Shown here: positions 1-17,320 of the stretch, one piece after another
How positions within the stretch are numbered: position 1 is the stretch's first letter
Layout of the letters: each line of letters starts with the position of its first letter
NCBI GenBank assembly: GCA_965231215.1
Contig: OZ246423.1
Location: forward strand, 960,001-1,024,000
Length of the DNA stretch: 64,000 nucleotides
Reading direction: 5' to 3'
Origin: Candidatus Altimarinota bacterium
Lineage (GTDB): Bacteria; Patescibacteriota; Gracilibacteria; UBA4473
Program-made: the position numbers and the translations under genes
Notes under the pieces: model-generated
What the model was told of the DNA's origin: nothing
Databases searched by the model: none
The model's input: the letters and a program-made list of their open reading frames with translations, nothing else

Positions 1-2
1 GG

Positions 3-1598
3 ACAAACAGCCCCTCCTCAGGGTTAAAACTAGACATAGAAGGAAAAATAGGCGCTACAGAATACTGTGATCAAAACGGAGGTAACTGTGTTCCCGCTGG
101 CAGCTTGAGCAGTGGCGGCAGTGATAATTTAGGGGACCATACGGCCACCCAAACCCTTGATACGCAAGGGATAGATTTTTCAAGGGATAGTGCTCAAGGG
201 CATATAGATGTAGATGGGGCTCTCTATCGTACAAATGGACAGGCTTACATAACGGTTGATGATAACCTTTATATAAGAGATGCCAATGGGGATTCATCCT
301 TTAGATTTATAACGGGAAACAATCCCGAAATTAGAATGGGAACCTCAACCAACAATGGTTGGAATACCATTGCTATGGATTCAGCCAATTCCACAAAAAC
401 CCTGAAAATTCATGGAATGGGAGATAGTAATCATCAATTGAGGTTTGGAAGATATGGAGATAACTATCAAGGCTGGGAAGCCAATCCTGTTGTTTTTGAT
501 ATGGATGCGGATCACAACACCTTTTTTGTAGCCGGCAATAGTAGAGTCGGAATAGGGACCTCAAGTCCAGCCCAAAAGTTGCACGTAAACGGGAACATTC
601 GTGCTGATGGGAGACATCTATATCTTGGTTCAGCTCAAGATATATATGGAGACAATAGTTCAGCGGTATATTATGACAGCAATCATGATACGGTCACGCA
701 GTTAATCATGAGAGACAAACAAAACACGGTATATGGACGACTTTATGGAGATGGTGATGGAGTTGGTTTTGGTCTACTTGATGGAGATGGGAATTGGGCG
801 ATTCGACACAGCAAAGACAATTATACAGAGTTTAGAGACAATAATGAGGCTCAGTTTAGAGTAGGAGCTGGAGGAGTTTCTGGAAGTTATGGAACGGTAG
901 AGACTCAAGGAGGAGGAAAAGCAGGATGGGAAGGATTTAATATAAATGGACGATACGTATTTATGTCTTCCGATAACAATACAGTAGGTATTTATGATGA
1001 CATCAATAATCGTTGGCGTGAGTATTGGGATGCCGATGATTATGATCTTCGTCATCAAAACAATGAACTTATTATGCACGCAGATGAAGATGCCTATACT
1101 TACCTCTACCACAATGGAGGCTGGAAACTCAGGACTGAAAGTACAGGGGTAAGAATTAATAATGATCTCTGGGTAAATCGGATTTGTAATACTTCTGGAG
1201 GAGACTGTAAGAACCAATCTTCACTTGGCAGTGGCAGTGGAGGTGGTGGCGGCGGCGGGGCGACTGGGTGTATTTATCAGGGAACCTACCGAGCTGAAGG
1301 ATATGTTTTTTATGATAATTACGGTTCGTGTAATGTAGGGTGTACTAATTATGGGAATGGAAGTACTTGTAGTAACTATACGAGAAATGGTTCAAGATCC
1401 TGCCGTAGAAATACCTGTCAGAGTAATGGTACTTGGGCACAAACAAACACAAGTTGTGGATGTAGTTGTACGGGGAGAAGCTGTAGTGACGATGATGATG
1501 ATAACGATGAGGCTTTAGATGATCTTATTTTGTCAAAAGGAGCTGAAGGTATAAAAACCCTTATTGAAGAACAAAAAGCCAAAGGAAAACTCTACTAG
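3..1598 (+). CDS. Modular fibre/adhesin protein (5' end outside window): tail-fibre-like modules, poly-Gly linker, Cys-rich and acidic C-terminus
   Basis: Frame is open from base 3 (TNSPSSGLKLDIEGKIGATEYCD...), upstream of the ORF-track start at 105. Shares the VGIGT module with the downstream adhesins. Confidence 0.8.
   Translation, partial: TNSPSSGLKLDIEGKIGATEYCDQNGGNCVPAGSLSSGGSDNLGDHTATQTLDTQGIDFSRDSAQGHIDVDGALYRTNGQAYITVDDNLYIRDANGDSSFRFITGNNPEIRMGTSTNNGWNTIAMDSANSTKTLKIHGMGDSNHQLRFGRYGDNYQGWEANPVVFDMDADHNTFFVAGNSRVGIGTSSPAQKLHVNGNIRADGRHLYLGSAQDIYGDNSSAVYYDSNHDTVTQLIMRDKQNTVYGRLYGDGDGVGFGLLDGDGNWAIRHSKDNYTEFRDNNEAQFRVGAGGVSGSYGTVETQGGGKAGWEGFNINGRYVFMSSDNNTVGIYDDINNRWREYWDADDYDLRHQNNELIMHADEDAYTYLYHNGGWKLRTESTGVRINNDLWVNRICNTSGGDCKNQSSLGSGSGGGGGGGATGCIYQGTYRAEGYVFYDNYGSCNVGCTNYGNGSTCSNYTRNGSRSCRRNTCQSNGTWAQTNTSCGCSCTGRSCSDDDDDNDEALDDLILSKGAEGIKTLIEEQKAKGKLY
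546..1240 (+). repeat. ~695 bp module, copy 1 of 3 (others at 2695-3389 and 7422-8116)
   Basis: Near-perfect nucleotide identity from gtcggaatagggacc to cagtggcagtgg; offset 2149 to copy 2. Confidence 0.95.
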
Positions 1599-1622
1599 AA
1601 CAGATAAAGAAAGATTAAAAAT

Positions 1623-1657
1623 AAAGGCCTTCAGAAATTATTTGGAGGTCTTTTTTT
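1623..1657 (+). terminator. Intrinsic terminator (second copy at 6350-6384)
   Basis: aggccttcaga-loop-tttggaggtct stem with G-U pairs, followed by a T run, just after the stop codon. Confidence 0.7.
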
Positions 1658-1720
1658 CTATTATGAAAATAAAATGAAGAATAAAGCAATATATTTTTTG
1701 AGATAAGCTTACGTTATTAA

Positions 1721-1729
1721 TGCTATAAT
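1721..1729 (+). promoter_or_regulatory. Extended -10 promoter TGcTATAAT (second copy at 6448-6456)
   Basis: Perfect TGnTATAAT 26 nt before ATG 1756. Confidence 0.6.
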
Positions 1730-1755
1730 TGCGCGAACTTAAAAAAAGAAGGCCA

Positions 1756-4700
1756 ATGCGTCACCCCTCTCTTAGCGTTTGCATGATGGTGCTTATGGTC
1801 GTTTTGACTGTGTTTGAGCCAGTTAAAGCCGCAGAATATGATCCCTCGTCCATCCCCAAAAAAGAAACGGGAGATGCTTTTACCGCTACAGAGCTAAATA
1901 CTTTAGTAAATGTAGTGAAGGGTCTTAAACGAGATGACCAAGGCACCAGCGCTTTAGGTGATGATCGATTTGGAATTGGTCTAGAATCAGCTTCACCAAC
2001 CCAAAAACTAGAGGTAAACGGAAACGTAAAAGCCACTAGATTTATAGGAGATGGATCACAATTGACCAATCTTCCAGAACAGTATTGGATAAAATCCTCT
2101 GGTAATATTAATTACCCTTTAGGTAATGTAGGTATTGGTACCTCGAGTATAAGTCCAGGGCTAAAACTAGACATAGCAGGAAAAGTGGGAGCCGTAGAAT
2201 ACTGTGATGCTTTGGGGACTAATTGTGTAGTGCCCTCGGATGTAGCCTCCAGCATTGCAAGTGGAGGCGGCGCAAGTGCTATTCAGCGTGGGGGGAGTAA
2301 TCCAGGCAGTGGAAGTGAAGGAGATGTTTTTTATAATACAACAGATAATCAAATCTATTTTTATAATGGGAGTAGCTGGGAAGCAATTGGAGGCGGAAAG
2401 TGGGGAGAAGGCACAACGCTAGGAACCATTTATTATACTGGTGGAAATGTGGGGATTGGGACGGCGAGTCCGAAAGTGCCGTTGCATGTGAATGGTGATG
2501 CCTATATTCAGGGGCAGGATTTAATTATGTCTTACCCCACTGATGCTAATAATATTGATAGTATCAGTTACAACGATGGTAATGCTGTTGGCTCTACGGG
2601 GGTTTATACGTTCTTGTCCGATACGACTTTGCGTCCAGCCTGGTACGCACCGACAGCAGCGATTTCCGCGAAGGGCGGTTATTTTGCAGGTAATGTCGGA
2701 ATAGGGACCTCAAGTCCAGCCCAAAAGTTGCACGTAAACGGGAACATTCGTGCTGATGGGAGACATCTATATCTTGGTTCAGCTCAAGATATATATGGAG
2801 ACAATAGTTCAGCGGTATATTATGACAGCAATCATGATACGGTCACGCAGTTAATCATGAGAGACAAACAAAACACGGTATATGGACGACTTTATGGAGA
2901 TGGTGATGGAGTTGGTTTTGGTCTACTTGATGGAGATGGGAATTGGGCGATTCGACACAGCAAAGACAATTATACAGAGTTTAGAGACAATAATGAGGCT
3001 CAGTTTAGAGTAGGAGCTGGAGGAGTTTCTGGAAGTTATGGAACGGTAGAGACTCAAGGAGGAGGAAAAGCAGGATGGGAAGGATTTAATATAAATGGAC
3101 GATACGTATTTATGTCTTCCGATAACAATACAGTAGGTATTTATGATGACATCAATAATCGTTGGCGTGAGTATTGGGATGCCGATGATTATGATCTTCG
3201 TCATCAAAACAATGAACTTATTATGCACGCAGATGAAGATGCCTATACTTACCTCTACCACAATGGAGGCTGGAAACTCAGGACTGAAAGTACAGGGGTA
3301 AGAATTAATAATGATCTCTGGGTAAATCGGATTTGTAATACTTCTGGAGGAGACTGTAAGAACCAATCTTCACTTGACAGTGGCAGTGGCGCGAGTGCTA
3401 TCCAGCGTGGGGGGAGCACTCCAGGGAGTGGAAGTGAAGGAGATGTTTTTTATAACACAACAGATAATCAAATCTATTTTTATAATGGAAGTAGCTGGGA
3501 AGCAATTGGAGGCGGAAAGTGGGGAGAGGGAACAACGCTAGGAACCATTTATTACACTGGTGGAAATGTGGGGATAGGAACCGCTACTCCGGCAGCGTTG
3601 TTAGATATAGCTGGGGGAGTCAAGATTGGAGATGATACAGCTGTCTGTGACAACACGAAAGCCGGAACAATCCGATACCAAGGAGGTGCAGTCCAAGTCT
3701 GTGATGGGTCAACTTGGGGATCCCTCGTGAGTGGGGGGAGTGGAGAGTTTGGGGTGCTAGATTGTGAGCTGGGGACTTTGGCAATCTCTAGCGATAATAG
3801 TGAAGTTTGTACGATCTATAATGATGATATGAAATTGCTGGCCAGTGATGCGGCGGTGGATGATCGCTTTGGCGTGAGCGTGTCCGTGTCTGGTGATATT
3901 GCGGTGATTGGGGCTTATTTCGATGATGATGCTGGTTCGAATAGTGGTTCGGCCTATGTGTTTAGGCGCTCTGGGACGAACTGGGTTCAGGAGGCGAAGC
4001 TGACGGCCAGTGATGCGGCGGCGAATAATCATTTTGGCCATAGGGTGTCCGTGTCTGGTGATACGGCTATGATTGCGGCTAATAACGGTGGTTTTGGTTC
4101 TGCTTTTGGTGTGGTCTATGTGTTTAAGCGCTCTGGGACGAACTGGGTTCAGGAGGCGAAGCTGACGGCCAGTGATACGGGTAGGTTCAATGGCTTTGGC
4201 TCGAGCATATCCATGTCTGGAGATAGGGCCGTGATTGGGGCTAGTGGGGCTAATGATACTGGTGCGGTCTATGTGTTTAAGCGCTCTGGGACGAACTGGG
4301 TTCAGGAGGCGAAGCTGAGGGCCTCTGATGCGGGGGCGAGGGATCAGTTTGGCTATAGGGTCTCCGTGTCTGGTGATACGGCCGTGATTGGGGCGTTTGC
4401 CGATGATGATGGTGGTAGGGATAGTGGTGCGGCCTATGTATTTACACGCTCTGGCACAACATGGAGGCAGGAGGCGAAGCTGACGGCCAGTGATGCGGCG
4501 GAGGTTGATCGCTTTGGCATGAGCGTCTCCGTGTCTGGTGATATTGCGGTGATTGGGGCTTATTTGGATGATGATGCTGGTTCGAATAGTGGTTCGGCCT
4601 ATGTGTTTACGCGCTCTGGCACAACCTGGACGCAGGAGGCGAAGCTGACAGCCAGTGATGCGGCGTCGGGTGATTATTTTGGCGTGAGCGTGTCTGTGTC

Positions 4701-5454
4701 TGGAGATAGGGCGATGATTGGGGCTTATGGCGATGATGCGTTTACTGGTTCGGCCTATGTGTTTACGCGCTCTGGCACAACATGGACGCAGGAGGCGAAG
4801 CTGACGACCAGTAATGCGGCGAGGTATAGTTATTTTGGCTATAGCGTGTCAATGTCTGATAATAGGGCGGTGATTGGGGCGTATGGCGGTGATGATGGTG
4901 GTCGTTGGTTTCGTGGTGTGGCCTATGTTGTAAATGTTGGGACTCAGACGTCTGATACGCTTTCTCAATTGAGTTGTACGGATGGACAGGTTGCGGCTTG
5001 GGATAGTGCGAGCAGTGCTTGGAAATGTGCGGATGGGTCGGGCGGCAGCTCCGCCTTCACCGTCGTCAAAACCGCACATCAGTCCGCGGCTAACGGCGCT
5101 ATCGTGACCTGGGATCTGGCGCTGAACAATGTCGGTGATGATTTCGACCTCACCAATAACCGCTATGTTGCTCCGTCCGACGGGGTCTATCATTTCTCCT
5201 ATGAGATTCTGGGACAAAATAATACGAATACATCAAACTACCGGGTGTATAAAAATGGCGTCAACACGGGGATCGCATCCTACGGAGGCGCTGGCGGCAG
5301 TGTTGTACATCGGCAAAGCGATGCCTCCTTCATTCTGAAACTGACAGCCGGCGATCAGATCGACATTCGGGCTGCAGGCACTCAACAGCCGTATGGAAAC
5401 GCAGGGGCCTATCACACCCATTTCTCCGGCTTCAAAATCTCCGGCGGCGGGTAA
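1756..5454 (+). CDS. Secreted modular fibre adhesin A: signal peptide, GNVGIGT fibre modules, 7 FG-GAP blades, C-terminal C1q-like domain
   Basis: Signal peptide ends ...PVKA. Seven repeats of KLTASDA..FG.SVSVSGD.AVIGA..GSAYVF. C1q motif [23 protein letters not shown] 1756 is preferred to TTG 1729, which overlaps the -10 box. Confidence 0.85.
2266..2462 (+). repeat. Internal ~200 bp module ([10 protein letters not shown]...GGNVGIGT), repeated at ~3387-3583 and twice in copy B
   Basis: Near-identical DNA and protein sequence. Confidence 0.9.
3832..4935 (+). repeat. Seven ~165 bp FG-GAP blade repeats of adhesin A
   Basis: Recurring caggaggcgaagctgacggccagtgatgcgg framework with variable inserts. 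Confidence 0.95.
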
Positions 5455-6325
5455 AGGCACTACCGTTGATTCAGTCACCATCGCCGTAACCACCACCCAA
5501 AGGACCGTACCGGTAAATGTTTCCGGGGTCAATAACGCGGTTGGCGTGAACGGAAGTTGTGCGGTTCTCTCTAACGGACAAGTCCAGTGCTGGGACGGAT
5601 ACGGACTGAATACTATTTCTGGAATTGATAATGCGGTTTCATTGGGAAACGCTAGTAAATCTGATGGCTGTGCGCTTTTGGATACCGGAAGAGTTAAGTG
5701 TTGGGAGCGAAATCGCCTCGATGAGGATCTAAGATCTCCGACGAGAAACATCTATGGAGCGACTCGCCTGGTGATGCATCGTCGCAATGGTTGTGTAGTG
5801 CTGGAAACCGGTAAACTACAGTGTTGGAGTGATGGTTATAGTGATTGGCCCAAGTACCCGGCTATTGTTAGCGGCATTGATAATGTGGTAGATGTTTCTG
5901 TTGAAAATGAAGCTCTCTGTGTGCTTCAGAGCGATGGAGTGGTAAAGTGTTTCGGAGACGCTTCACATGATATTTTCGGTGGAGCGGGGCAGTATCCTTA
6001 TGAGACACCACCGGCAGTAACGGTGGCGACAGGGGCGGTAGCGCTGGCGATGACTGGCCATAATAACTGTATTACCTTTGGGAATGGAAGTACTTGTAGT
6101 AACTATACGAGAAATGGTTCAAGATCCTGCCGTAGAAATACCTGTCAAAGTAATGGTACTTGGGCACAAACAAACGCAAGTTGTGGATGTAGTTGTACGG
6201 GGAGAAGCTGTAGTGACGATGATGATGATAACGATGAGGCTTTAGATGATCTTATTTTGTCAAAAGGAGCTGAAGGTATAAAAACCCTTATTGAAGAACA
6301 AAAAGCCAAAGGAAAACTCTACTAG
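5393..6325 (+). CDS. RCC1/BLIP-II-like repeat protein fused to the Cys-rich/acidic tail of the first ORF; start uncertain, possibly a +1 extension of adhesin A
   Basis: [36 protein letters not shown] and [12 protein letters not shown] repeats. The last ~80 aa match the first ORF. Confidence 0.65.
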
Positions 6326-6482
6326 AACAGATAAAGAAAGATTAAAAATAAAGGCCTTCAGAAATTATTTGGAGGTCTTTTTTTCTATTATGAAAATAAA
6401 ATGAAGAATAAAGCAATATATTTTTTGAGATAAGCTTACGTTATTAATGCTATAATTGCGCGAACTTAAAAAAAGAAGGCCA

Positions 6483-9400
6483 ATGCGTCACCCCTCTCTT
6501 AGCGTTTGCATGATGGTGCTTATGGTCGTTTTGACTGTGTTTGAGCCAGTTAAAGCCGCAGAATATGATCCCTCGTCCATCCCCAAAAAAGAAACGGGAG
6601 ATGCTTTTACCGCTACAGAGCTAAATACTTTAGTAAATGTAGTGAAGGGTCTTAAACGAGATGACCAAGGCACCAGCGCTTTAGGTGATGATCGATTTGG
6701 AATTGGTCTAGAATCAGCTTCACCAACCCAAAAACTAGAGGTAAACGGAAACGTAAAAGCCACTAGATTTATAGGAGATGGATCACAATTGACCAATCTT
6801 CCAGAACAGTATTGGATAAAATCCTCTGGTAATATTAATTACCCTTTAGGTAATGTAGGTATTGGTACCTCGAGTATAAGTCCAGGGCTAAAACTAGACA
6901 TAGCAGGAAAAGTGGGAGCCGTAGAATACTGTGATGCTTTGGGGACTAATTGTGTAGTGCCCTCGGATGTAGCCTCCAGCATTGCAAGTGGAGGCGGCGC
7001 AAGTGCTATTCAGCGTGGGGGGAGTAATCCAGGCAGTGGAAGTGAAGGAGATGTTTTTTATAATACAACAGATAATCAAATCTATTTTTATAATGGGAGT
7101 AGCTGGGAAGCAATTGGAGGCGGAAAGTGGGGAGAAGGCACAACGCTAGGAACCATTTATTATACTGGTGGAAATGTGGGGATTGGGACGGCGAGTCCGA
7201 AAGTGCCGTTGCATGTGAATGGTGATGCCTATATTCAGGGGCAGGATTTAATTATGTCTTACCCCACTGATGCTAATAATATTGATAGTATCAGTTACAA
7301 CGATGGTAATGCTGTTGGCTCTACGGGGGTTTATACGTTCTTGTCCGATACGACTTTGCGTCCAGCCTGGTACGCACCGACAGCAGCGATTTCCGCGAAG
7401 GGCGGTTATTTTGCAGGTAATGTCGGAATAGGGACCTCAAGTCCAGCCCAAAAGTTGCACGTAAACGGGAACATTCGTGCTGATGGGAGACATCTATATC
7501 TTGGTTCAGCTCAAGATATATATGGAGACAATAGTTCAGCGGTATATTATGACAGCAATCATGATACGGTCACGCAGTTAATCATGAGAGACAAACAAAA
7601 CACGGTATATGGACGACTTTATGGAGATGGTGATGGAGTTGGTTTTGGTCTACTTGATGGAGATGGGAATTGGGCGATTCGACACAGCAAAGACAATTAT
7701 ACAGAGTTTAGAGACAATAATGAGGCTCAGTTTAGAGTAGGAGCTGGAGGAGTTTCTGGAAGTTATGGAACGGTAGAGACTCAAGGAGGAGGAAAAGCAG
7801 GATGGGAAGGATTTAATATAAATGGACGATACGTATTTATGTCTTCCGATAACAATACAGTAGGTATTTATGATGACATCAATAATCGTTGGCGTGAGTA
7901 TTGGGATGCCGATGATTATGATCTTCGTCATCAAAACAATGAACTTATTATGCACGCAGATGAAGATGCCTATACTTACCTCTACCACAATGGAGGCTGG
8001 AAACTCAGGACTGAAAGTACAGGGGTAAGAATTAATAATGATCTCTGGGTAAATCGGATTTGTAATACTTCTGGAGGAGACTGTAAGAACCAATCTTCAC
8101 TTGACAGTGGCAGTGGCGCGAGTGCTATCCAGCGTGGGGGGAGCACTCCAGGGAGTGGAAGTGAAGGAGATGTTTTTTATAACACAACAGATAATCAAAT
8201 CTATTTTTATAATGGAAGTAGCTGGGAAGCAATTGGAGGCGGAAAGTGGGGAGAGGGAACAACGCTAGGAACCATTTATTACACTGGTGGAAATGTGGGG
8301 ATAGGAACCGCTACTCCAGCAGCGTTGTTAGATATAGCTGGGGGAGTCAAGATTGGAGATGATACAGCTGTCTGTGACAACACGAAAGCCGGAACAATCC
8401 GATACCAAGGAGGCGCAGTCCAAGTCTGTGATGGATCGACTTGGGGATCTCTCGTGAATGGGGGGAGTGGGGAGTTTGGGGTGCTGGATTGTGAGCTGGG
8501 GACTTTGGTAATCTCTAGCGATAATAGTGAAGTTTGTACGATCTATAATGATGATATGAAATTGCTGGCCAGTGATGCGGCGGCGGGGGATTGGTTTGGC
8601 TTTAGCGTGTCCGTGTCTGGTGATACGGCCGTGATTGGGGCTTATTTGGATGATGATGGAGGTAGGGATAGTGGTTCGGCCTATGTGTTTAGGCGCTCTG
8701 GGACGAGCTGGGTTCAGGAGGCGAAGCTGACGGCCAGTGATGCGGCGGCGGGGGATTATTTTGGCTGGAGCGTGTCCGTGTCTGGTGATACGGCCGTGAT
8801 TGGGGCTTATCGCGATAATCATGGTGTTGGTTTGTATAGTGGCGCGGCCTATGTGTTTAAGCGCTCTGGGACGAGCTGGGTTCAGGAGGCGAAGCTGACG
8901 GCCAGTGATGCGGCGGAGGGGGATTGGTTTGGCTTTAGTGTGTCCGTGTCTGGTGATACGGCGGTGATTGGGGCTCTTGTCGATGATGATGGAGGTAGGG
9001 ATAGTGGTTCGGCTTATGTGTTTAAGCGCTCTGGGACGAGCTGGGTTCAGGAGGCGAAGCTGAGGGCCTCTGATGCGGGGGCGAATGATCAGTTTGGCTT
9101 TAGCGTGTCCGTGGATGGTGATAGGGTCGTGATTGGGGCTTATGGCTATGATGATGGTGGGGGATGGGCCTATGTGTTTAAGCGCTCTGGGACGAACTGG
9201 GTTCAGGAGGCGAAGCTGACGGCCAGTGATGCGGGGGCGCATGATCGCTTTGGCGTGAGCGTGTCCTTGTCTGGTGATACGGCCGTGATTGGGGCTTATA
9301 AGGATGATACTGCTGGTTGGAAAGCTGGTGCGGCCTATGTGTTTACGCGTTCTGGCACAACATGGACACAGGAGGCGAAGCTGACGGCCAGTGATGCGGG

Positions 9401-10193
9401 GGCGAATTATTTTGGCTTTAGTGTGTCCGTGTCTGGAGATAGGGCGATGATGGGGGCCATTGGCGATAATAATGCTGGTTCGTGGTCTGGCGCGGCCTAT
9501 GTGTTTAAGCGCTCTGGCACAACCTGGACGCAGGAGGCGAAGCTGACGGCCAGTGATGCGGCGAGGGGTGATTCTTTTGGCAGGAGCGTGTCCGTGTCTG
9601 GAGATAGGGCGATGATTGGGGCTCCTTACAATGATGATGGTGGGTCGGGGAGTGGTTCGGCGTATGTTGTAAATATTGGGACTCAGACGTCTGATACGCT
9701 TTCTCAGTTGAGTTGTACGGATGGACAGGTTGCGGCTTGGGATAGTGCGAGCAGTGCTTGGAAATGTGCGGATGGGTCGGGCGGCAGCTCCGCCTTCACC
9801 GTCGTCAAAACCGCATATCAGTCCGTGGCTAACGGCGCTATCGTGACTTGGGATCTGGCGCTGACCAATGTCGGTGATGATTTCGACCTCACCAACAACC
9901 GCTATGTCGCCCCGTCCGACGGGGTCTATCATTTCTCCTATGAGATTCTGGGACAAAATAATACGAATACATCAAACTACCGGGTCTATAAAAATGGCGT
10001 CAACACGGGGATCTCATCCTACGGAGGCGCTGGCGGTAGTGTTGTACATCGACAAAGCGACGCCTCCTTCATTCTGAAACTGACAGCCGGCGATCAGATC
10101 GACATTCGGGCTGCAGGCACTCAACAGCCGTATGGAAACGCAGGGGCCTATCACACCCATTTCTCCGGCTTCAAAACCTCCGGCGGCGGGTAA
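6483..10193 (+). CDS. Secreted modular fibre adhesin B (paralog of A with different propeller loops)
   Basis: Same architecture as A. The first ~660 aa are identical. Confidence 0.85.
8559..9674 (+). repeat. Seven FG-GAP blade repeats of adhesin B
   Basis: Same framework as 3832-4935. Confidence 0.95.
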
Positions 10194-10398
10194 AGGCACT
10201 ACCGTTGATTCAGTCACCATCGCCGCAACCACCCCCCAAAGAACCGTACCGGTAAATGTTTCCGGGGTCAATAACGCGGTTGGCGTGAACGGAAGTTGTG
10301 CGGTTCTTTCTGACGGACAAGTCCAGTGCTGGGACAGATACGGACTGCATACTATTTCCGGAATTGATAATGTGGTTTCATTGGGAAACGCTTATTGA
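10132..10398 (+). pseudogene. Truncated RCC1-like module (copy B)
   Basis: Homologous to 5393-5653, then stops at the breakpoint. Confidence 0.65.
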
Positions 10399-10882
10399 AC
10401 AACAAAAGGCAGTTCACTTGGAAAACCGAGATATTTTTTCACTTTGTAAACGGATTCCTAAAGATCAGGCCGAAGACCGAGCTTTGTGTTTTCAGGAGGC
10501 TGCCGCGTTGGCACTGAGAGAGTCCAGTGATGAAACATTGTGTGAATATTTTGTAGAAGAAATGTCTCGTGAATCCTGTCGGGCTGATGTGCTTACCCGA
10601 CAAGCCGAATCCAGTGGTAATGTGGAACTTTGTAATAAAATAAGGGATCCTTTCCGGTCAAGTTGTTACGGTCTTTTACTCAATCGTTTGAGTTCTACCG
10701 ATCATGATTACACGATAGAGGTTTGTGAATTGCTAGAAGATGGCTTTTTCAGGAGAGAATGTTACTACTTATTCTTAGACCGCCGTGAGAATGCCGAGAT
10801 TTGTCATAATACCCAAGACCTGCCGGCAATGCTGGGAGACCTCTGTGAAGAGAGACTCAGTGCAGATGATGAGAGAACATAA
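10386..10882 (+). CDS. Cys-rich helical-repeat protein, apparently 5'-truncated at the duplication breakpoint
   Basis: Repeated LC..I....R..C units. The ORF-track N-terminus (10298-10385) is out-of-frame RCC1 sequence. Confidence 0.55.
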
Positions 10883-10979
10883 AAAACACTTCGATTCTCT
10901 CTGGAAGGGGCAGACCAATAATATTTTAAAAATCTTCGGATAGACTTCCCCAGGCTGCCGGGTAGAATGGGGGCTGACA

Positions 10980-12272
10980 ATGAAAAATAAACACTCAAAT
11001 TTAATATTATTGGTGACGATTTTTACTTTGATAGCCTGTAGTCAAAAGCCTTTATCCAAAAAAACTACCCCAACACCTTTAGAGAACACTCTCAAATTGT
11101 CTCAGGAATGGATGCTGAACTTTCAGGCAGATTCAGGGTTACTTCATTATGTATATCGCCCAGTGGAAAATAGTTTTGATGATGACAACAATTTGGTACG
11201 TCAGGTGGGGTCACTCTGGGGCTTTGCTCAAACTCTAGAAGGAGATATTGATACTGAAAAAGCGCGGTTTATAGACACATTCTTAGACGCCATTGAAGAA
11301 AATATGGAATACCATTTCCTAGGCAACCAAGAAATTGGATATCTGACCTGGGGTAATATAGCTAAAACGAACACCACAGCCCTCTACATTTTAGCTCTAT
11401 TAGAACTTGAGTCTCAAGGCTATGTCTTGTCGCCAGAAAGAGAAAAAGCGCTTCATAAGGTGGCTCTAGGATTAGAGCTTATGGCTAGCAGTGGTGGGGG
11501 ATTTTGGTATATTTATTTTTTCCCTCGAGCGCATAACAAAGTTTCAGCCTACGCTACTGGGGAAGCCTTATTTGCTTTGACCAAGTACCATAAAGCCTAT
11601 CCAAACGCACGCCCTGATTTGAAAGACTTTTTAGAAGTTCAATACAAAACTTATTTTGAAGAAAATATTCTTCCAGCCAAAAACTTCCAGGATCCGATTA
11701 TTCGTGGATTTTTTGCTTGGGGGATGTATTTCCTGAATGAAATGGATGACCTAGCTCCAGTGGATTATGAGAAATATGTAAAACCAATGCTCGTCTGGGC
11801 ATTAGAAGAGAGGGTTTCTACCTTTTGTGCGATAAAAGGCGAAGGCTGTATTTCTGGAGTCAGTGCCGGTGAGGCTTCCTTTATGGAAGGGTTTTTAGCC
11901 GCCTATCCTTTGGTAAAAAAATATGACCCTCCGTTTGTGCTTGAAATAGAAAAATATCTCCATCCGGCTGCCCAAATGTTTATGGATCTGCAGGTTACTT
12001 CTGTTGAAAATTTTGAAACTAAGGTGCAGCAAAATTTCACAGGAGAGGATCACTATCTTATTGGAGGATTCTGCCAAAACCCTGAGTGTGCTCTCTTTAG
12101 GAATGACTATAACCAGCATGCTATGACAGCACTATTTTGGTACAAATCATGGCTACCAGAATTTGAGTTCCTCCCAAAGCTGACAGAGAATAAATCGGTA
12201 GATCAAAACCATGAGTACGCCCAAAAAAATACTCCACCAAAAGAGGTGAATAACATCGAGGTAAGGAACTAA
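10980..12272 (+). CDS. Lipoprotein, predicted alpha/alpha-toroid (prenyltransferase/six-hairpin-like) of unknown function
   Basis: Lipobox LIAC; motifs NNLVRQVG, GEALFAL and FRNDYNQHA; paralog of 18048-19136. Confidence 0.65.
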   Translation: MKNKHSNLILLVTIFTLIACSQKPLSKKTTPTPLENTLKLSQEWMLNFQADSGLLHYVYRPVENSFDDDNNLVRQVGSLWGFAQTLEGDIDTEKARFIDTFLDAIEENMEYHFLGNQEIGYLTWGNIAKTNTTALYILALLELESQGYVLSPEREKALHKVALGLELMASSGGGFWYIYFFPRAHNKVSAYATGEALFALTKYHKAYPNARPDLKDFLEVQYKTYFEENILPAKNFQDPIIRGFFAWGMYFLNEMDDLAPVDYEKYVKPMLVWALEERVSTFCAIKGEGCISGVSAGEASFMEGFLAAYPLVKKYDPPFVLEIEKYLHPAAQMFMDLQVTSVENFETKVQQNFTGEDHYLIGGFCQNPECALFRNDYNQHAMTALFWYKSWLPEFEFLPKLTENKSVDQNHEYAQKNTPPKEVNNIEVRN

Positions 12273-13756: not shown

Positions 13757-16700
13757 ATGCGATTTATCCATTTTTGGACTTATATTTTGATGCTTGTTTT
13801 TGGAACTTTTTATTTCTGGACCCAGTCTAGATATCCAAAACTGCTTGAAAAATCTGTGGCTGGAGAACTCATAGAAACGGATGGTGGGATTGCCTTTCAT
13901 CCAAAATTTTTTCTAGAACCCACAGATTTATGGTTTGAGGCCATCGGAAAAATATTTTTTAACTGGGGGTATGACAACATCCAGGGAATGACTTTTGGGT
14001 TTTTTCTCGGAGCGGTTATTCTGTCACTCGTAAAGGTATCTCCTTGGTTTCAAAAAACTTACAAATCCCATTGGGCCAATATCCTTCAGGGGTTTACGTT
14101 AGGGGTGCCTATTGGCGTTTGTGCTAATTGTATTGTTCCCGTAGGGCAAGGACTTATTAGGGCCGGTAAATCCTGGTCTTTAGTGCTGACTACGATGGTG
14201 AGTTCTCCTACGTTTAACGTCATTGTGATACTCATTTTGATGTTGCTGTTTCCCTGGTATTTGGTGCTGCTTAAAATCTTAGGAACGCTGCTAATCATTG
14301 CCTGCATTCCTCTCATTACGGCAGGACTTGAAAACAAAAAAAATGCCAAATCTATAGCGGCTGAATCCTGCGAAGTAAAATCCTACAAAAATGGTGTTGA
14401 AGCTTTTCTAGACGCTATTAAAGATTTTTTGAAACACCTAGTTTTTATCCTCCAAAAGACTTTGGGCTGGATGATATTAGCCGGACTTTTAGGAGCTATA
14501 TTTATCTATTTTATGCCGTTTGATGTGCTTTCAGAGCTACCAGTAACTTGGTGGAGTCTGATTTTTATTGCGATGGTAGGAACTTTTGTTCCAGTGCCGA
14601 TAACTTTTGATCTCTTTTTGGCTTCTATTTTATTTCAGGGTGGAGCGCCAGCAGGAATTGTAATGGTGCTCTTATTTACTTTAGGGATTCACAGTATCTA
14701 TCCAGCAATGATTATTTATCGTGAAGCCAACCCAAAAGTCGCGTTAAAACTCTTTAGTCTGGTAGTGGCGATGGGGGTTTTGCTGGGAATGCTGGCACAC
14801 CAGTTGGATACACGTTTTGTGAACCAGACAAAGTCGGTTTTAAGCCAACAAGCCGTGCAAAATTTTCAAAAAGAGAAAGCCATTTTAAAACAATCTTGCC
14901 GTCAGTTGCCAGATATAAAAGCTCAAGAAGCCTGTTTCAAAAAAGGAATTAAAGAACGGCTTGGAAAAAACCAAAAGGCTGACTTGTGTAAATTAGAATC
15001 TGATTGGCTTTCGGTTTCCCAGTGTAGAGCCTTGATTATGACTCAGCGAGCTGTGGCAGAAGGAAACTTGGATTTTTGTAATGGATTGTATAAAGAGCTC
15101 AAACTTAACTGCCAAAGGGCGGTAGTGCAGTCAGTAGTAGAAGAGCGCCGTAAACATAAAGCTATCTGCAAAGTACTCCCTCAAGCTGAGCAATTGAAAT
15201 GTGAAGATGAAGTCGAAAAAAGACGAGTTTCACAAATCTATCCAGAATTTTATAGTGTGCTTTGTTCTGGATTTGAGCGCCCAAGGAACCTCGATTTCTG
15301 TTTTGCTAAAAGAGTCATCTATCAGCCAGAACTCTGTGATGAATTGAAATCTTCAGAAGATCAGCTTTGGTGTCATGAAAAGAGAATCCTTACACAAGCT
15401 ACGATCACTATTGAAGATATGTACCTAGAAGATCCGGCAGGAAGTAGAGCCATTTTAGACATTAAATCTGATGTCTCTGAAAAACCTTTGTCCGAGATTA
15501 AAACCCCTCAAATTATACCGGAAGTGCTGTCAGATCAAGATGACATTAAAATCGAAACTATTAAAGGTTTGCCTAAATCTACTTGGGACGGGGCAACTGT
15601 TTTTGAGCGAATAGAATTGCCTCATATGGGGAACCGGTTTGGGATACTTGATTTTTTTACGCCTTTCTCATTGGGGAGAGGTATTGCGGTGGGAGATGTA
15701 AATAAAGATCATTGGCCAGACTTGGTTTTTGCTACAAAAAGTGGGGTTGAGCTTTATGTTGGAAATGGAACTGAGAATTTTTCGAAAGTAAAATTGGACG
15801 AGAACCTATCATCTAAAAGCGTGTTTTTAGTCAGTCTAATTGATATAAATAACGATACTTGGGTAGACATATTTTTATCTACTTATTCTGGTAAGAACTT
15901 TTTTATCATTAATGATGAAGGGGTATTTTCAGAGGTTATAGAGCTTGATAAAAATTCAGAGAGAGCTATTAGTTTTGGAGCCACATTTAGTGATTTAGAT
16001 CAAAATGGATTCTTGGATATAGGTCTGGGCAATGTCACTTCCTATAACCGAGATTTTATTCGTAAAACTTCCTCAAAAAATGAAGTCTATCTCAATAATA
16101 GCTTAGATTTTAAAAAATATGATTTCCCAGAAATCACAGGGGAAACCCTTTCAATTTTGTTTTCAGACGTAGATCAAAATGGGGTTACAGACCTTCTTGT
16201 GGGCAATGATTATAAAGAGCCAGATATGTATTATTTTGATTTTTTTGAGCACAAAACGCCGGATAAAAGATCCAAAATAAAACACACCGCTGCCAGTACT
16301 ATGAGTATTGATACTGGAGATATAAATAATGATCTTCATTTGGATCTGTTTTTGGCGGATATGAGCTTTAAAAAAAATAGCGTTAACTACTGTGATAGTA
16401 TCAAAGATGCCGAGGCTTATAAAAAGTGTAGTTACTATCGTGATGTACTCCATCCAATTATTAGGAGTCGCTCAGTGAGTCAGTGCCAAAGTTTGGAAGC
16501 GAGTGGTGCTTGTATGGTGGCCGTGGCTTTAGCTTTGGCCATTCAGTATGAAGATAAAAGTTTTTGTGAAGCCATACCTACCGTCTATCCCAAAGTTCAG
16601 GCACGATGTTTTCGGGCTCTAGAACAAAGAACCGATAAAATTGAAACCATGGATCTAAACGATTTTGGCTGGCAAAAAACAGAGAACGTATTGCTCTTGG

Positions 16701-17320
16701 GCAATAATAAACAGACCTTTGATCCAGCGCCTAAAAATTGGAATTTTCAAGAAAGTTTTTGGGCCTGGAATAGTAAGTTTGCCGATCTAGATAATGACAC
16801 CTGGTTGGATATATATGTTGGCAATGGACGGATGCGACAAAAAGAAACCCACTCGAATGTGTTTTATCATAATCAAAAAGGCAAAGGGTTTGTGAAAGCC
16901 CAAGAGGCTTTTGGGCTCGAAGATTATCTACATACCCCGGCTTATGTTTATACAGATTTTGATAATGACTTAGATTTAGACATGGTGACCATAGGCATTA
17001 ATGGGCCTACCCGGATTTTCAAAAACCATATTCAGAGCAATGGAATTATTTTTGATCTCAAAGACGAAAAGGGCAATAGTGAAGCTATTGGAGCTAAAAT
17101 CTATATTTATTATGGCGATGGATTGTCACAAATCAGAGAAGTAAAATCTGGAGGAGGATTTATATCTTTTGAAGATACAAGTGTTCATTTTGGACTACAC
17201 AATTTTGATTGGGTGGATCAAGTAGAAATTTATTGGCCTGATGGTGAAAAAACTAAAATAACCCAACCACTTAAAACAAATCAAAAATATATTATTCATC
17301 GAAAAGCGCGACAAAGTTGA
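13757..17320 (+). CDS. Fusion of a DUF318/ArsP-like permease, Cys-rich repeats, FG-GAP/VCBS repeats and an ASPIC/UnbV (CRTAC1-like) domain
   Basis: N-terminal TM helices with PIGVCANCIVP; GDVNKDHWPDL and DLDNDTWLDIYV repeats; AIGAKI...VHFGL...IYWPDG C-terminus. Confidence 0.8.
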   Translation: MRFIHFWTYILMLVFGTFYFWTQSRYPKLLEKSVAGELIETDGGIAFHPKFFLEPTDLWFEAIGKIFFNWGYDNIQGMTFGFFLGAVILSLVKVSPWFQKTYKSHWANILQGFTLGVPIGVCANCIVPVGQGLIRAGKSWSLVLTTMVSSPTFNVIVILILMLLFPWYLVLLKILGTLLIIACIPLITAGLENKKNAKSIAAESCEVKSYKNGVEAFLDAIKDFLKHLVFILQKTLGWMILAGLLGAIFIYFMPFDVLSELPVTWWSLIFIAMVGTFVPVPITFDLFLASILFQGGAPAGIVMVLLFTLGIHSIYPAMIIYREANPKVALKLFSLVVAMGVLLGMLAHQLDTRFVNQTKSVLSQQAVQNFQKEKAILKQSCRQLPDIKAQEACFKKGIKERLGKNQKADLCKLESDWLSVSQCRALIMTQRAVAEGNLDFCNGLYKELKLNCQRAVVQSVVEERRKHKAICKVLPQAEQLKCEDEVEKRRVSQIYPEFYSVLCSGFERPRNLDFCFAKRVIYQPELCDELKSSEDQLWCHEKRILTQATITIEDMYLEDPAGSRAILDIKSDVSEKPLSEIKTPQIIPEVLSDQDDIKIETIKGLPKSTWDGATVFERIELPHMGNRFGILDFFTPFSLGRGIAVGDVNKDHWPDLVFATKSGVELYVGNGTENFSKVKLDENLSSKSVFLVSLIDINNDTWVDIFLSTYSGKNFFIINDEGVFSEVIELDKNSERAISFGATFSDLDQNGFLDIGLGNVTSYNRDFIRKTSSKNEVYLNNSLDFKKYDFPEITGETLSILFSDVDQNGVTDLLVGNDYKEPDMYYFDFFEHKTPDKRSKIKHTAASTMSIDTGDINNDLHLDLFLADMSFKKNSVNYCDSIKDAEAYKKCSYYRDVLHPIIRSRSVSQCQSLEASGACMVAVALALAIQYEDKSFCEAIPTVYPKVQARCFRALEQRTDKIETMDLNDFGWQKTENVLLLGNNKQTFDPAPKNWNFQESFWAWNSKFADLDNDTWLDIYVGNGRMRQKETHSNVFYHNQKGKGFVKAQEAFGLEDYLHTPAYVYTDFDNDLDLDMVTIGINGPTRIFKNHIQSNGIIFDLKDEKGNSEAIGAKIYIYYGDGLSQIREVKSGGGFISFEDTSVHFGLHNFDWVDQVEIYWPDGEKTKITQPLKTNQKYIIHRKARQS

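Follow-up and report, generated by a model that had tools for sequence, protein, structure and literature searches.

The closest described concept to the locus reported here is that of the WD40 repeats of high internal conservation in the HNWD NOD-like receptors (NLRs) of Podospora anserina (genes het-d, het-e, het-r). Our subject is a pair of tandem genes, A and B, in a 64,000-nucleotide window of a Candidatus Altimarinota bacterium genome (contig OZ246423.1; the window comprises genome bases 960001-1024000, and gene coordinates below count from its start). The HNWD repeats are kept alike by concerted evolution, and a few surface positions in them are under diversifying selection, as stated in the available text of PMC11761791. 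The products of A and B resemble these receptors in that the propeller blades within each gene are alike (median protein identity 63% in A and 71% in B), that their variable loops are predicted to lie on one face, and that the ratio of non-synonymous to synonymous substitution rates (omega) exceeds 1 in the loops. The blade identities are also above the 60% threshold given in the accessible part of PMC9218822. However, the fungal propellers consist of WD40 repeats in intracellular NLRs, whereas those of A and B consist of FG-GAP_2 blades on what would be an extracellular fibre of a bacterium. Blade identity is over 80% in the fungal genes (PMC11761791, available text) and lower here, with 70-92% in DNA. 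Furthermore, four codons are variable in the fungal repeats, while here whole loops vary and carry indels, and the fungal genes form allelic series with repeat-number polymorphism, while here two paralogs come from one assembly.

With respect to the fold, integrin alpha chains share the seven-bladed FG-GAP propeller and give the best Foldseek matches. Integrin propellers carry a Ca2+-binding hairpin in the turn between strands 1 and 2. In contrast, the 1-2 turns in the model of A span two residues and leave no room for such a hairpin, there is no beta-subunit partner, and the propeller of A and B is located between a tail-fibre-like stalk and a C1q head. Integrin-type propellers have been described in bacteria (PMC3192720) and highly repetitive FG-GAP/alpha-integrin propellers in bacteria and archaea (PMC9218822), in each case according to the accessible part of the paper.

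As filaments with a C-terminal C1q-like domain, which in A is modelled as a trimer, the two proteins also recall a second surface structure. BclA of the Bacillus exosporium forms a filament with a C-terminal, trimerising C1q-like domain. Unlike in BclA, the stalk of A and B is tail-fibre-like rather than collagen-like, and a propeller is inserted before the head. The receptor-binding proteins of phage tail fibres and tailocins offer a further parallel, namely a common N-terminus and stalk with exchangeable heads. The paralogs in this genome differ in their heads, which are C1q arrays, a propeller plus C1q, a Cys-rich tail or an S74 chaperone, with boundaries at linker motifs. In contrast to the phage proteins, A and B are chromosomal and cellular, have a signal-peptide-like N-terminus and adjoin no phage genes. 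Finally, in the targets of diversity-generating retroelements (DGRs) in CPR (Candidate Phyla Radiation) bacteria and DPANN archaea, which are putative ligand-binding surface proteins of symbionts with small genomes, variability is localised. A and B likewise have a localised variable region in a putative ligand-binding surface protein, but they lack a linked reverse transcriptase, a template repeat and a single C-terminal variable region.

Based on the comparisons below, we consider it rather probable that A and B are tandem duplicates within a mosaic family of secreted or N-terminally anchored, tail-fibre-like surface fibres, that their loops diverged under selection, and that they likely bind different ligands. 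Little is known about how the ultra-small CPR bacteria recognise their hosts and stay attached to them, and A and B are concrete candidates with a predicted ligand face that appears to be selected. This would mean that propeller repeats with a conserved frame and selected loops, as in fungal immune receptors, occur on a bacterial fibre too, and that such fibres are built by module swapping and bear a head of foreign codon composition. Of practical value are a short residue list and two natural variants for binding tests, all of which rests on one assembly and two sequences.

Propeller fold and divergence of the loops

A and B are two long frames in tandem on the plus strand. Gene A (1756-5454) encodes 1232 residues from the ATG at 1756, which is preceded by GAAGG and was taken as the likely start, and gene B (6483-10193) encodes 1236 residues from the ATG at 6483; the corresponding database proteins P0011 and P0104 have the same lengths of 1232 and 1236 residues. 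Both frames open further upstream at TTG codons (1729 and 6456), giving 1241 and 1245 residues, and residue and codon numbers of A refer to the 1241-residue frame. In A, the stalk corresponds to codons 1-620 (1729-3588), the junction with a Cys motif to codons 621-701 (3589-3831), the propeller to codons 702-1069 (3832-4935), and the linker with the C1q/TNF-like head to codons 1070-1241 plus the stop codon (4936-5454). In B, the propeller extends over codons 702-1073 (8559-9674) and is followed by the C-terminal linker and C1q-like head (9675-10193). From the N-terminus, the chain would consist of a signal-peptide-like segment and a common N-terminal domain, a stalk of about 600 residues, the Cys junction and the head, so that an assembled fibre would carry three propellers below a trimeric C1q tip.

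Seven FG-GAP_2 (PF14312) stretches were identified per protein using Pfam (E 1.9e-119 and 2.2e-134; cut-off 23 bits), with nothing in the first 640 residues of A or B, and the propeller of A was also recovered as a tandem repeat with a period of 165 and 6.6 copies. We modelled residues 640-1088 of A with AlphaFold2 using an alignment of 30 rows. The model has a predicted local distance difference test score (pLDDT) of 83.6, with 288 of the 449 residues at 90 or above, and a predicted template modelling (TM) score of 0.82. It forms a closed ring of seven four-stranded blades with 28 predicted strands, in which a strand at residues 701-703, located before blade 1 at the end of the junction, is predicted to close the ring. 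In a Foldseek search of the PDB, all matches shown among ranks 1 to 50 were integrin alpha chains (E 1e-17 to 6e-15, TM 0.58-0.66); the best of them reached an E of 1e-17 with a TM of 0.63-0.66 and included 4wk2_A (E 1e-17, TM 0.63). The 1-2 turns comprise only two residues in the model and read SGD, and the Asp-rich stretch sits in the 2-3 loop. A Ca2+-binding hairpin of the DxDxDG type between strands 1 and 2, such as some blades of integrin and VCBS propellers possess (for the motif, see also the accessible part of PMC9218822), is absent from the blades in both the model and the blade alignment.

An earlier note on this DNA had claimed that all seven blades differ between the two genes and that the differences concentrate before the FG motif, after it and after IGA, with short in-frame indels. 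An alignment of all 14 blades bears out both statements. Each of the seven positional pairs differs, with 75-90% identity in DNA and 62-82% in protein, and the variable columns are 7-12 (before FG), 15-16 (after FG) and 29-43 (after IGA), accompanied by short in-frame indels. Over the propeller, 165 codon columns differ (105 non-synonymous, 46 synonymous and 14 gaps). The note had also emphasised many W, Y, F and R residues; together with H, these are enriched in the variable columns (23% versus 15% elsewhere, p 0.008), but only modestly, and D, G and S dominate. Blades within a gene can be as close as or closer than positional pairs, with 90% DNA identity between A1 and A5 and 92% between B1 and B3. 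We considered long identical tracts between blades as proof of conversion and discarded them, as the longest tract common to non-partner blades measures 46 nt and is suggestive only.

We assigned strands and loops by DSSP from the AlphaFold model, which makes these classes independent of where A and B differ. Differing positions are concentrated in the 4-1 and 2-3 loops (66 of 145, versus 45 of 233 elsewhere; Fisher p 1.2e-7), with 43 of 207 in strands and 2 of 26 in bottom turns. By the strand topology of the model, the 4-1 and 2-3 loops are predicted to emerge on the same face of the propeller, which agrees with the one-sided arrangement of variable residues that the note had foreseen. For the 137 codons of these top loops, the Nei-Gojobori method gave a dN of 0.33 and a dS of 0.116 (non-synonymous and synonymous divergence per site), resulting in an omega of 2.83 (p 0.0012). 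A maximum-likelihood (ML) codon model of the Goldman-Yang type (F3x4 frequencies, kappa 1.74) gave an omega of 4.1 (likelihood-ratio statistic 13.8, p 2e-4), and the 4-1 loops alone, which contain one indel, reach 3.04 (p 0.03). Divergence is not evenly spread, in that omega drops to 0.50 in strands and 0.24 in bottom turns (Nei-Gojobori), to 0.37 in the other propeller codons, that is, strands and bottom turns together (ML), and to 0.08 and 0.20 in the two propeller flanks (Nei-Gojobori; 0.20 by ML). Moreover, the loop dS of 0.116 is not above the strand dS of 0.22, which speaks against the loops having been taken over wholesale, as old sequence, from other blades. In integrins, the face formed by the 4-1 and 2-3 loops binds ligands, and by analogy the loop face of A and B may serve the same purpose. 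We propose that, after the duplication, these loops gained replacements and short in-frame indels faster than synonymous change, and that the two fibres would consequently bind different ligands on another cell, presumably the host, or variants of one ligand.

Several observations weigh against this interpretation. Only two sequences were compared, the 2-3 loops carry indels and their alignment is uncertain, and omega can be inflated by multi-nucleotide changes or by brief conversion events among the blades. The variable columns coincide with the unconserved 'x' positions of the family-wide FG-GAP_2 consensus among 28 unrelated proteins. On a metagenomic contig, two tandem FG-GAP_2 paralogs of 473 and 481 residues (L028, 434-1855 and 2163-3608) vary at the same loop positions with a loop omega of 0.79 and a framework omega of 0.35, which fits mere relaxation. 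No cell-wall anchor motif was found at the C-terminus of the fibres, and no donor of the head was found, so that the import proposed below is argued from composition and distribution alone. The main risk lies in the assembly, which could affect both the identical tract described below and the order of near-identical blades.

Some of these observations would be expected if constraint on the loops were simply relaxed, such that loops free to vary are shuffled by blade conversion or slippage and A and B are redundant, drifting duplicates. Apart from the shared unconserved columns and the metagenomic tandem pair, this explanation draws on the finding that blades within a gene are as alike (63% and 71%) as positional partners (62-82%), on the tracts of up to 46 nt in non-partner blades, and on a strand dS roughly threefold that measured in the C-terminal part (p 0.005), which suggests additional, repeat-driven mutational input. 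We nevertheless regard it as unlikely. Neutral drift gives an omega of about 1, while both methods place the top loops significantly higher, and the excess persists when dS is pooled over the entire head (omega 2.3, p 3e-6); the loops show no elevated dS; and both frames are intact with exactly seven blades each. Tandem FG-GAP_2 genes are also present in one related genome (G020).

The C1q-like head and its composition

The C-terminal parts of both proteins match Pfam C1q (PF00386), with an E of 2.9e-12 and 47.3 bits for A and 4.2e-12 and 46.8 bits for B at a cut-off of 23.7 bits. A search of the PDB with the C1q part of A returned 23 distinct sequences, among them cerebellin-1 as the best, C1q and caprin-2 (E 1.5e-20 to 1e-8 for these three). 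In C1q, BclA and collagen X, a collagen-like Gly-X-Y stalk precedes the domain; here, the translation contains no Gly-X-Y run, and the C1q domain comes after the propeller. When modelled as a homotrimer, the C1q part scored 0.88 compared to 0.02 for the best of three controls, a value that may echo solved C1q trimers in the model's memory. Among proteins solved as pairs, 20 of 30 attain that mark, compared to 1 of 23 among those solved as single chains; at least 85% of contacts are common to the runs, and the pLDDT is at least 85. This prediction supports a trimeric state, and the C1q head would most likely trimerise. Five amino acids differ between the C1q parts of A and B (4936-5451 versus 9675-10190), and three of them, at positions 64, 114 and 168 of the 172 residues compared, are located in the predicted trimer interface.

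The head differs from the stalk in codon composition. GC content at third codon positions (GC3) is 0.33 up to codon 662 and 0.54 thereafter (change point, log-likelihood gain 29.7), with 0.32 in the stalk of A, 0.53-0.57 in the propellers and 0.58-0.59 in the C1q parts, compared to a genome mean of 0.34 with a standard deviation of 0.05 (553 frames of at least 300 residues). A 1908-residue paralog shows a comparable jump at this Cys junction motif, with a GC3 of 0.30 before it and 0.5-0.8 after it. A membrane-like frame of 433 residues (genome 1101655-1102953, minus strand; GC3 0.56) is, together with the fibre heads, among the very few clearly foreign frames. We rejected an intrinsic GC3 bias of FG-GAP_2 repeats, as FG-GAP_2 genes in four related genomes show native values of 0.25-0.39, and consider GC-biased conversion unlikely, as demonstrably homogenised stalk modules keep a native GC3 of 0.26-0.38. 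The simplest explanation of the composition is that the head was imported from a higher-GC source. Presumably, this occurred once, and the head was subsequently duplicated together with its flanks.

The distribution of related sequences is uneven along the protein. Four genomes of the same genus match the stalk only, and 12 of 400 other genomes of the class match on the FG-GAP blades or the short linker after them, none on the C1q part. In a collection of 5.8 billion proteins, 7966 of the 8000 scored candidates were FG-GAP proteins; among the 120 listed, the best outside propeller match was 60% identical over 64% of the query, and the C1q part was covered by A and B only. Using the C1q part alone, we found four proteins in the near length range, three of which come from this genome, with the best outside match at 57% identity (P0122). 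Among 1.84 billion proteins, 926 representatives matched the C1q part at an E of 0.001 or below and 10 at 1e-30 or below, the best outside one being 54% identical (P0123). Of the eight top representatives that were scanned, four carry Peptidase_S74, one of them together with Collar, and none carries FG-GAP.

Scans of metagenomes, species genomes and viral contigs yielded no close relative. The search for a donor of the head was unsuccessful; the contigs of the 80 metagenomic relatives range from 34 to 74% GC with no pattern, and none of the collections searched contained a close relative. The combination of an FG-GAP propeller with a C1q head was not found in any other protein examined, and our literature search, which did not cover supplements, yielded no publication on a fibre combining FG-GAP with C1q or on FG-GAP loops under selection in CPR bacteria. 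In the accessible part of PMC4736985, FG-GAP occurs only as an annotation of Cys-rich exported proteins, in another organism with 58.5% GC.

Identical stalk DNA, the fibre family and sources of variation

An alignment of 1352-5600 with 6079-10339 by blastn showed 94.6% identity across 4281 aligned columns (180 mismatches, 30 gap openings), and at a fixed offset of 4727 there are 11 mismatches within 1352-3834. The longest perfect run measures 2141 bp (1450-3590 = 6177-8317, plus strand) and renders codons 1-620 of A and B DNA-identical. This confirms the DNA identity of about 2.1 kb that had been noted before, except that it starts at 1450 instead of 1456, six bases earlier. At a flank divergence of about 3%, approximately 67 mismatches would be expected in 2141 bp, an approximate figure because the flank counts overlap slightly, and 0 were observed. 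Elsewhere, A and B have diverged to a dS of 0.13 and a dN of 0.011 in the junction (codons 621-701), to 0.18 and 0.18 over the whole propeller, and to 0.076 and 0.016 in the C-terminal 172 codons. The latter contain 6 non-synonymous and 9 synonymous differences, and the C1q heads are 97% identical, consistent with the near-identity previously ascribed to them.

The tract of zero divergence covers the 3' end of the upstream open reading frame (ORF), a terminator-like hairpin, a promoter-like region and the codons up to 620. Because it begins in the upstream gene, crosses the intergenic region and ends at codon 620, it is a DNA tract and not a protein domain. The earlier note had interpreted it as a constant stalk. 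However, zero divergence amid a dS of 0.08-0.22 elsewhere in the duplication argues for recent gene conversion or an assembly artefact rather than a designed constant region, and the simplest reading of the alignment is recent gene conversion among paralogs, or else assembly collapse. The breakpoints coincide with GNVGIGT-type linker motifs and with a repeat inside the stalk (2255-2508 versus 3374-3627, 85%). We therefore propose a model in which stalk modules are exchanged among paralogs at the GNVGIGT-type motifs; following the duplication, gene conversion would recently have erased the divergence over 2141 bp of upstream region and stalk, and the blades within each gene would partly have homogenised one another.

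A bolder extension of this model is a two-cassette receptor system as a bacterial counterpart of eukaryotic repeat-based recognition receptors. Through the identical 2.1-kb flanks and the similar blades, the two propellers would recombine and generate A/B chimeras, blade swaps and changes in copy number within the population; with stalks identical and C1q heads nearly so, chains of A and B would form mixed trimers; and whole heads would be acquired from other organisms at the Cys junction motif, which together would set and shift the host range of an episymbiont. We put this forward tentatively and consider it rather improbable.

We assign a low probability to an assembly artefact, according to which the 2141-bp identity, a third copy of a 682-bp stalk module and maybe the blade order derive from collapsed or consensus-filled repeats, such that the true stalks or the copy number may differ. 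In line with this, the perfect identity stops abruptly, repeats of this length exceed short-read insert sizes, and Illumina-based assemblies get fungal repeats of a similar kind wrong (PMC11761791, available text). On the other hand, the genome consists of one contig of 1,326,059 bp without any N and with 99.3% completeness, neither gene is disrupted, and the propellers have seven blades each, which close in the model. In addition, the units are about 3% divergent to either side of the identical tract, which implies that two distinct copies were resolved. Gene conversion tracts are, moreover, ordinary in tandem paralogs.

A and B belong to a fibre family that forms two clusters in the genome (912-923 kb and 954-970 kb). 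Five members have a common N-terminal domain: A, B, the 868-residue product of the upstream ORF (ORF0), a 522-residue protein and the 1908-residue paralog. Two further members end in a Peptidase_S74 chaperone, which is typical of phage tail fibres and spikes. The N-terminus of A is signal-peptide-like as read from the sequence, with a basic and a hydrophobic segment followed by VKA/AE. The 1908-residue paralog (genome 917114-922840; L001 9114-14840, minus strand) shows 95% nucleotide identity to A/B at its N-terminus and contains at least four C1q domains (Pfam E 8.4e-45), one of which is 82% identical to that of A. Its match to BclA_C is weak (E 5.9e-6) and below the Pfam cut-off. The junction Cys motif is common to A and this paralog, with 94% nucleotide identity at 921.5 kb.

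Judged by its sequence, the stalk appears phage-tail-fibre-like and is mosaic. PHROG tail-fibre families match it with an E of 2e-10 to 1e-8, over just 35-105 residues. A protein atlas places it beside viral 'phage tail fiber-like / PTL_trimer' clusters with a score of 0.90, based on 137 shared features compared to 170 that are typical of true members, which we regard as a lead only. PF26696 is listed among the precomputed domains of P0011, but was not recovered when we scanned the stalk against Pfam ourselves (E up to 1).

The resemblance to tail fibres raises the question of whether A and B are receptor-binding parts of a prophage or phage-tail-like particle such as a tailocin. The PHROG and atlas results, the Peptidase_S74 domain of the paralogs, and the finding that the closest outside relatives of the C1q head occur in proteins with Collar and S74 domains would be in agreement with this. 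We nevertheless judge it very unlikely because of the signal-peptide-like N-terminus, the short extent of the PHROG matches and the genomic context. The neighbouring genes are cellular (a penicillin-binding protein, a Big_1/fn3 surface protein, IF-2 and sugar transferases), A and B have no phage genes next to them, and no close relative was found in the viral contigs scanned. Furthermore, the position of the fibre locus next to the gene of the penicillin-binding protein is syntenic in at least two genomes of the same genus (G002 and G004), where the syntenic fibre genes contain neither an FG-GAP nor a C1q domain.

The note had further called the loops antibody-like and inferred a diversifying receptor system, terms that imply a generator or a repertoire and that we consider overstated. 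There are two copies only, and no other alleles of A or B were detected in the protein, metagenome, species-genome or class-genome collections searched. All 14 FG-GAP_2 matches over the cut-off in a six-frame search of the genome fall within A and B, and tblastn of A against the genome revealed no blade outside them; silent donor cassettes of the pilE/pilS or vlsE type were rejected on this basis. Invertible elements were likewise discarded, as no inverted repeats were found in 1-11000. The genome does contain two adjacent reverse-transcriptase frames (RVT_1, 75.9 and 51.5 bits; genome 327388-329326, L015/L016), which are located about 633 kb from the locus. A blastn search of 322-334 kb against the genome revealed no template/variable repeat, the one match of 43 nt being located elsewhere, and we dismissed A and B as DGR targets.

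Although these frames exist and the variable positions are sharply localised, programmed hypervariation of the propeller loops by a DGR or donor cassettes has next to no probability, given the distance of the frames, the absence of a template repeat, of silent blades and of inverted repeats, and a variation spread over 14 separate loops with indels, which is unlike the single variable region of a DGR. Since there is no generator and blades such as A1 and A5 or B1 and B3 are 90% and 92% identical, the diversity is best attributed to the divergence of two paralogs, combined with exchange among their blades. Taken together, the data speak for selection towards different binding faces in a pair of paralogous fibres and not for an antibody-like system.

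Surroundings of the duplicated unit

The first copy of the duplicated unit (1352-5653, plus strand) comprises the Cys-rich tail of ORF0, the intergenic region, gene A and 200 bp downstream; pairwise alignments and blastn place the second copy at 6079-10392 on the same strand. ORF0 begins upstream of the window, and its 3' part occupies 3-1598 (plus strand). It encodes a tail-fibre-like stalk and a Cys-rich tail, with no Pfam family matched and short PHROG tail-fibre matches present. The 682-bp stalk module within it (546-1227, plus strand; repeat family D4) is, by offset comparison, DNA-identical to 2695-3376 in gene A and 7422-8103 in gene B. A terminator-like hairpin with a stem of 13 pairs followed by a T run is located after ORF0 (1623-1653, plus strand), and an identical copy is found at 6350-6380.

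Downstream of gene A, and overlapping its end in another frame, lies an RCC1-like ORF of 310 residues (5393-6325, plus strand; RCC1_2 E 6e-7) without a signal peptide. The initial 260 bp of this ORF are found again behind gene B, the central part (5654-6078) occurs once only, and the final 247 bp constitute the second copy of the Cys-rich tail of ORF0. Based on this composite structure, the ORF is probably a chimera left by the duplication. Its counterpart after gene B is an 88-residue ORF (10132-10398, plus strand) that corresponds to a truncated start of the RCC1-like ORF, and the homology between the two copies stops inside it at 10392. With 4727, the duplication has a longer period than its homologous length of 4302, which hints at a subsequent deletion. 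Open frames are also present antisense to the propellers, one of 542 residues opposite that of B (8328-9956, minus strand) and one of 363 residues opposite that of A; with a GC3 of 0.54-0.56, these are most likely by-products of the GC-rich repeats and not genes.

The single-contig genome has a GC content of 39.9%, and the genomes of relatives measure 0.7-2.0 Mb. The ribosomal proteins uL30 and bL9 were not found in it by searches whose controls matched in 13 of 14 and 10 of 14 genomes. CPR members often lack these proteins, as noted in the accessible part of PMC9297842, and a small single-contig genome without uL30 or bL9 plausibly fits this group; an episymbiotic life style of the source organism is plausible as well. 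The genes in the window are open under translation table 11. In two other genomes of the class, matches contain in-frame TGA codons (two in G036:C15 and nine in G064:C18), which hints that parts of the class may read TGA as a residue.

A few kilobases from the locus, a frame of 1187 residues (13757-17320, plus strand) combines an ArsP_1 permease domain with FG-GAP_3/VCBS repeats and UnbV_ASPIC. It represents a membrane-anchored propeller protein of a different FG-GAP family.

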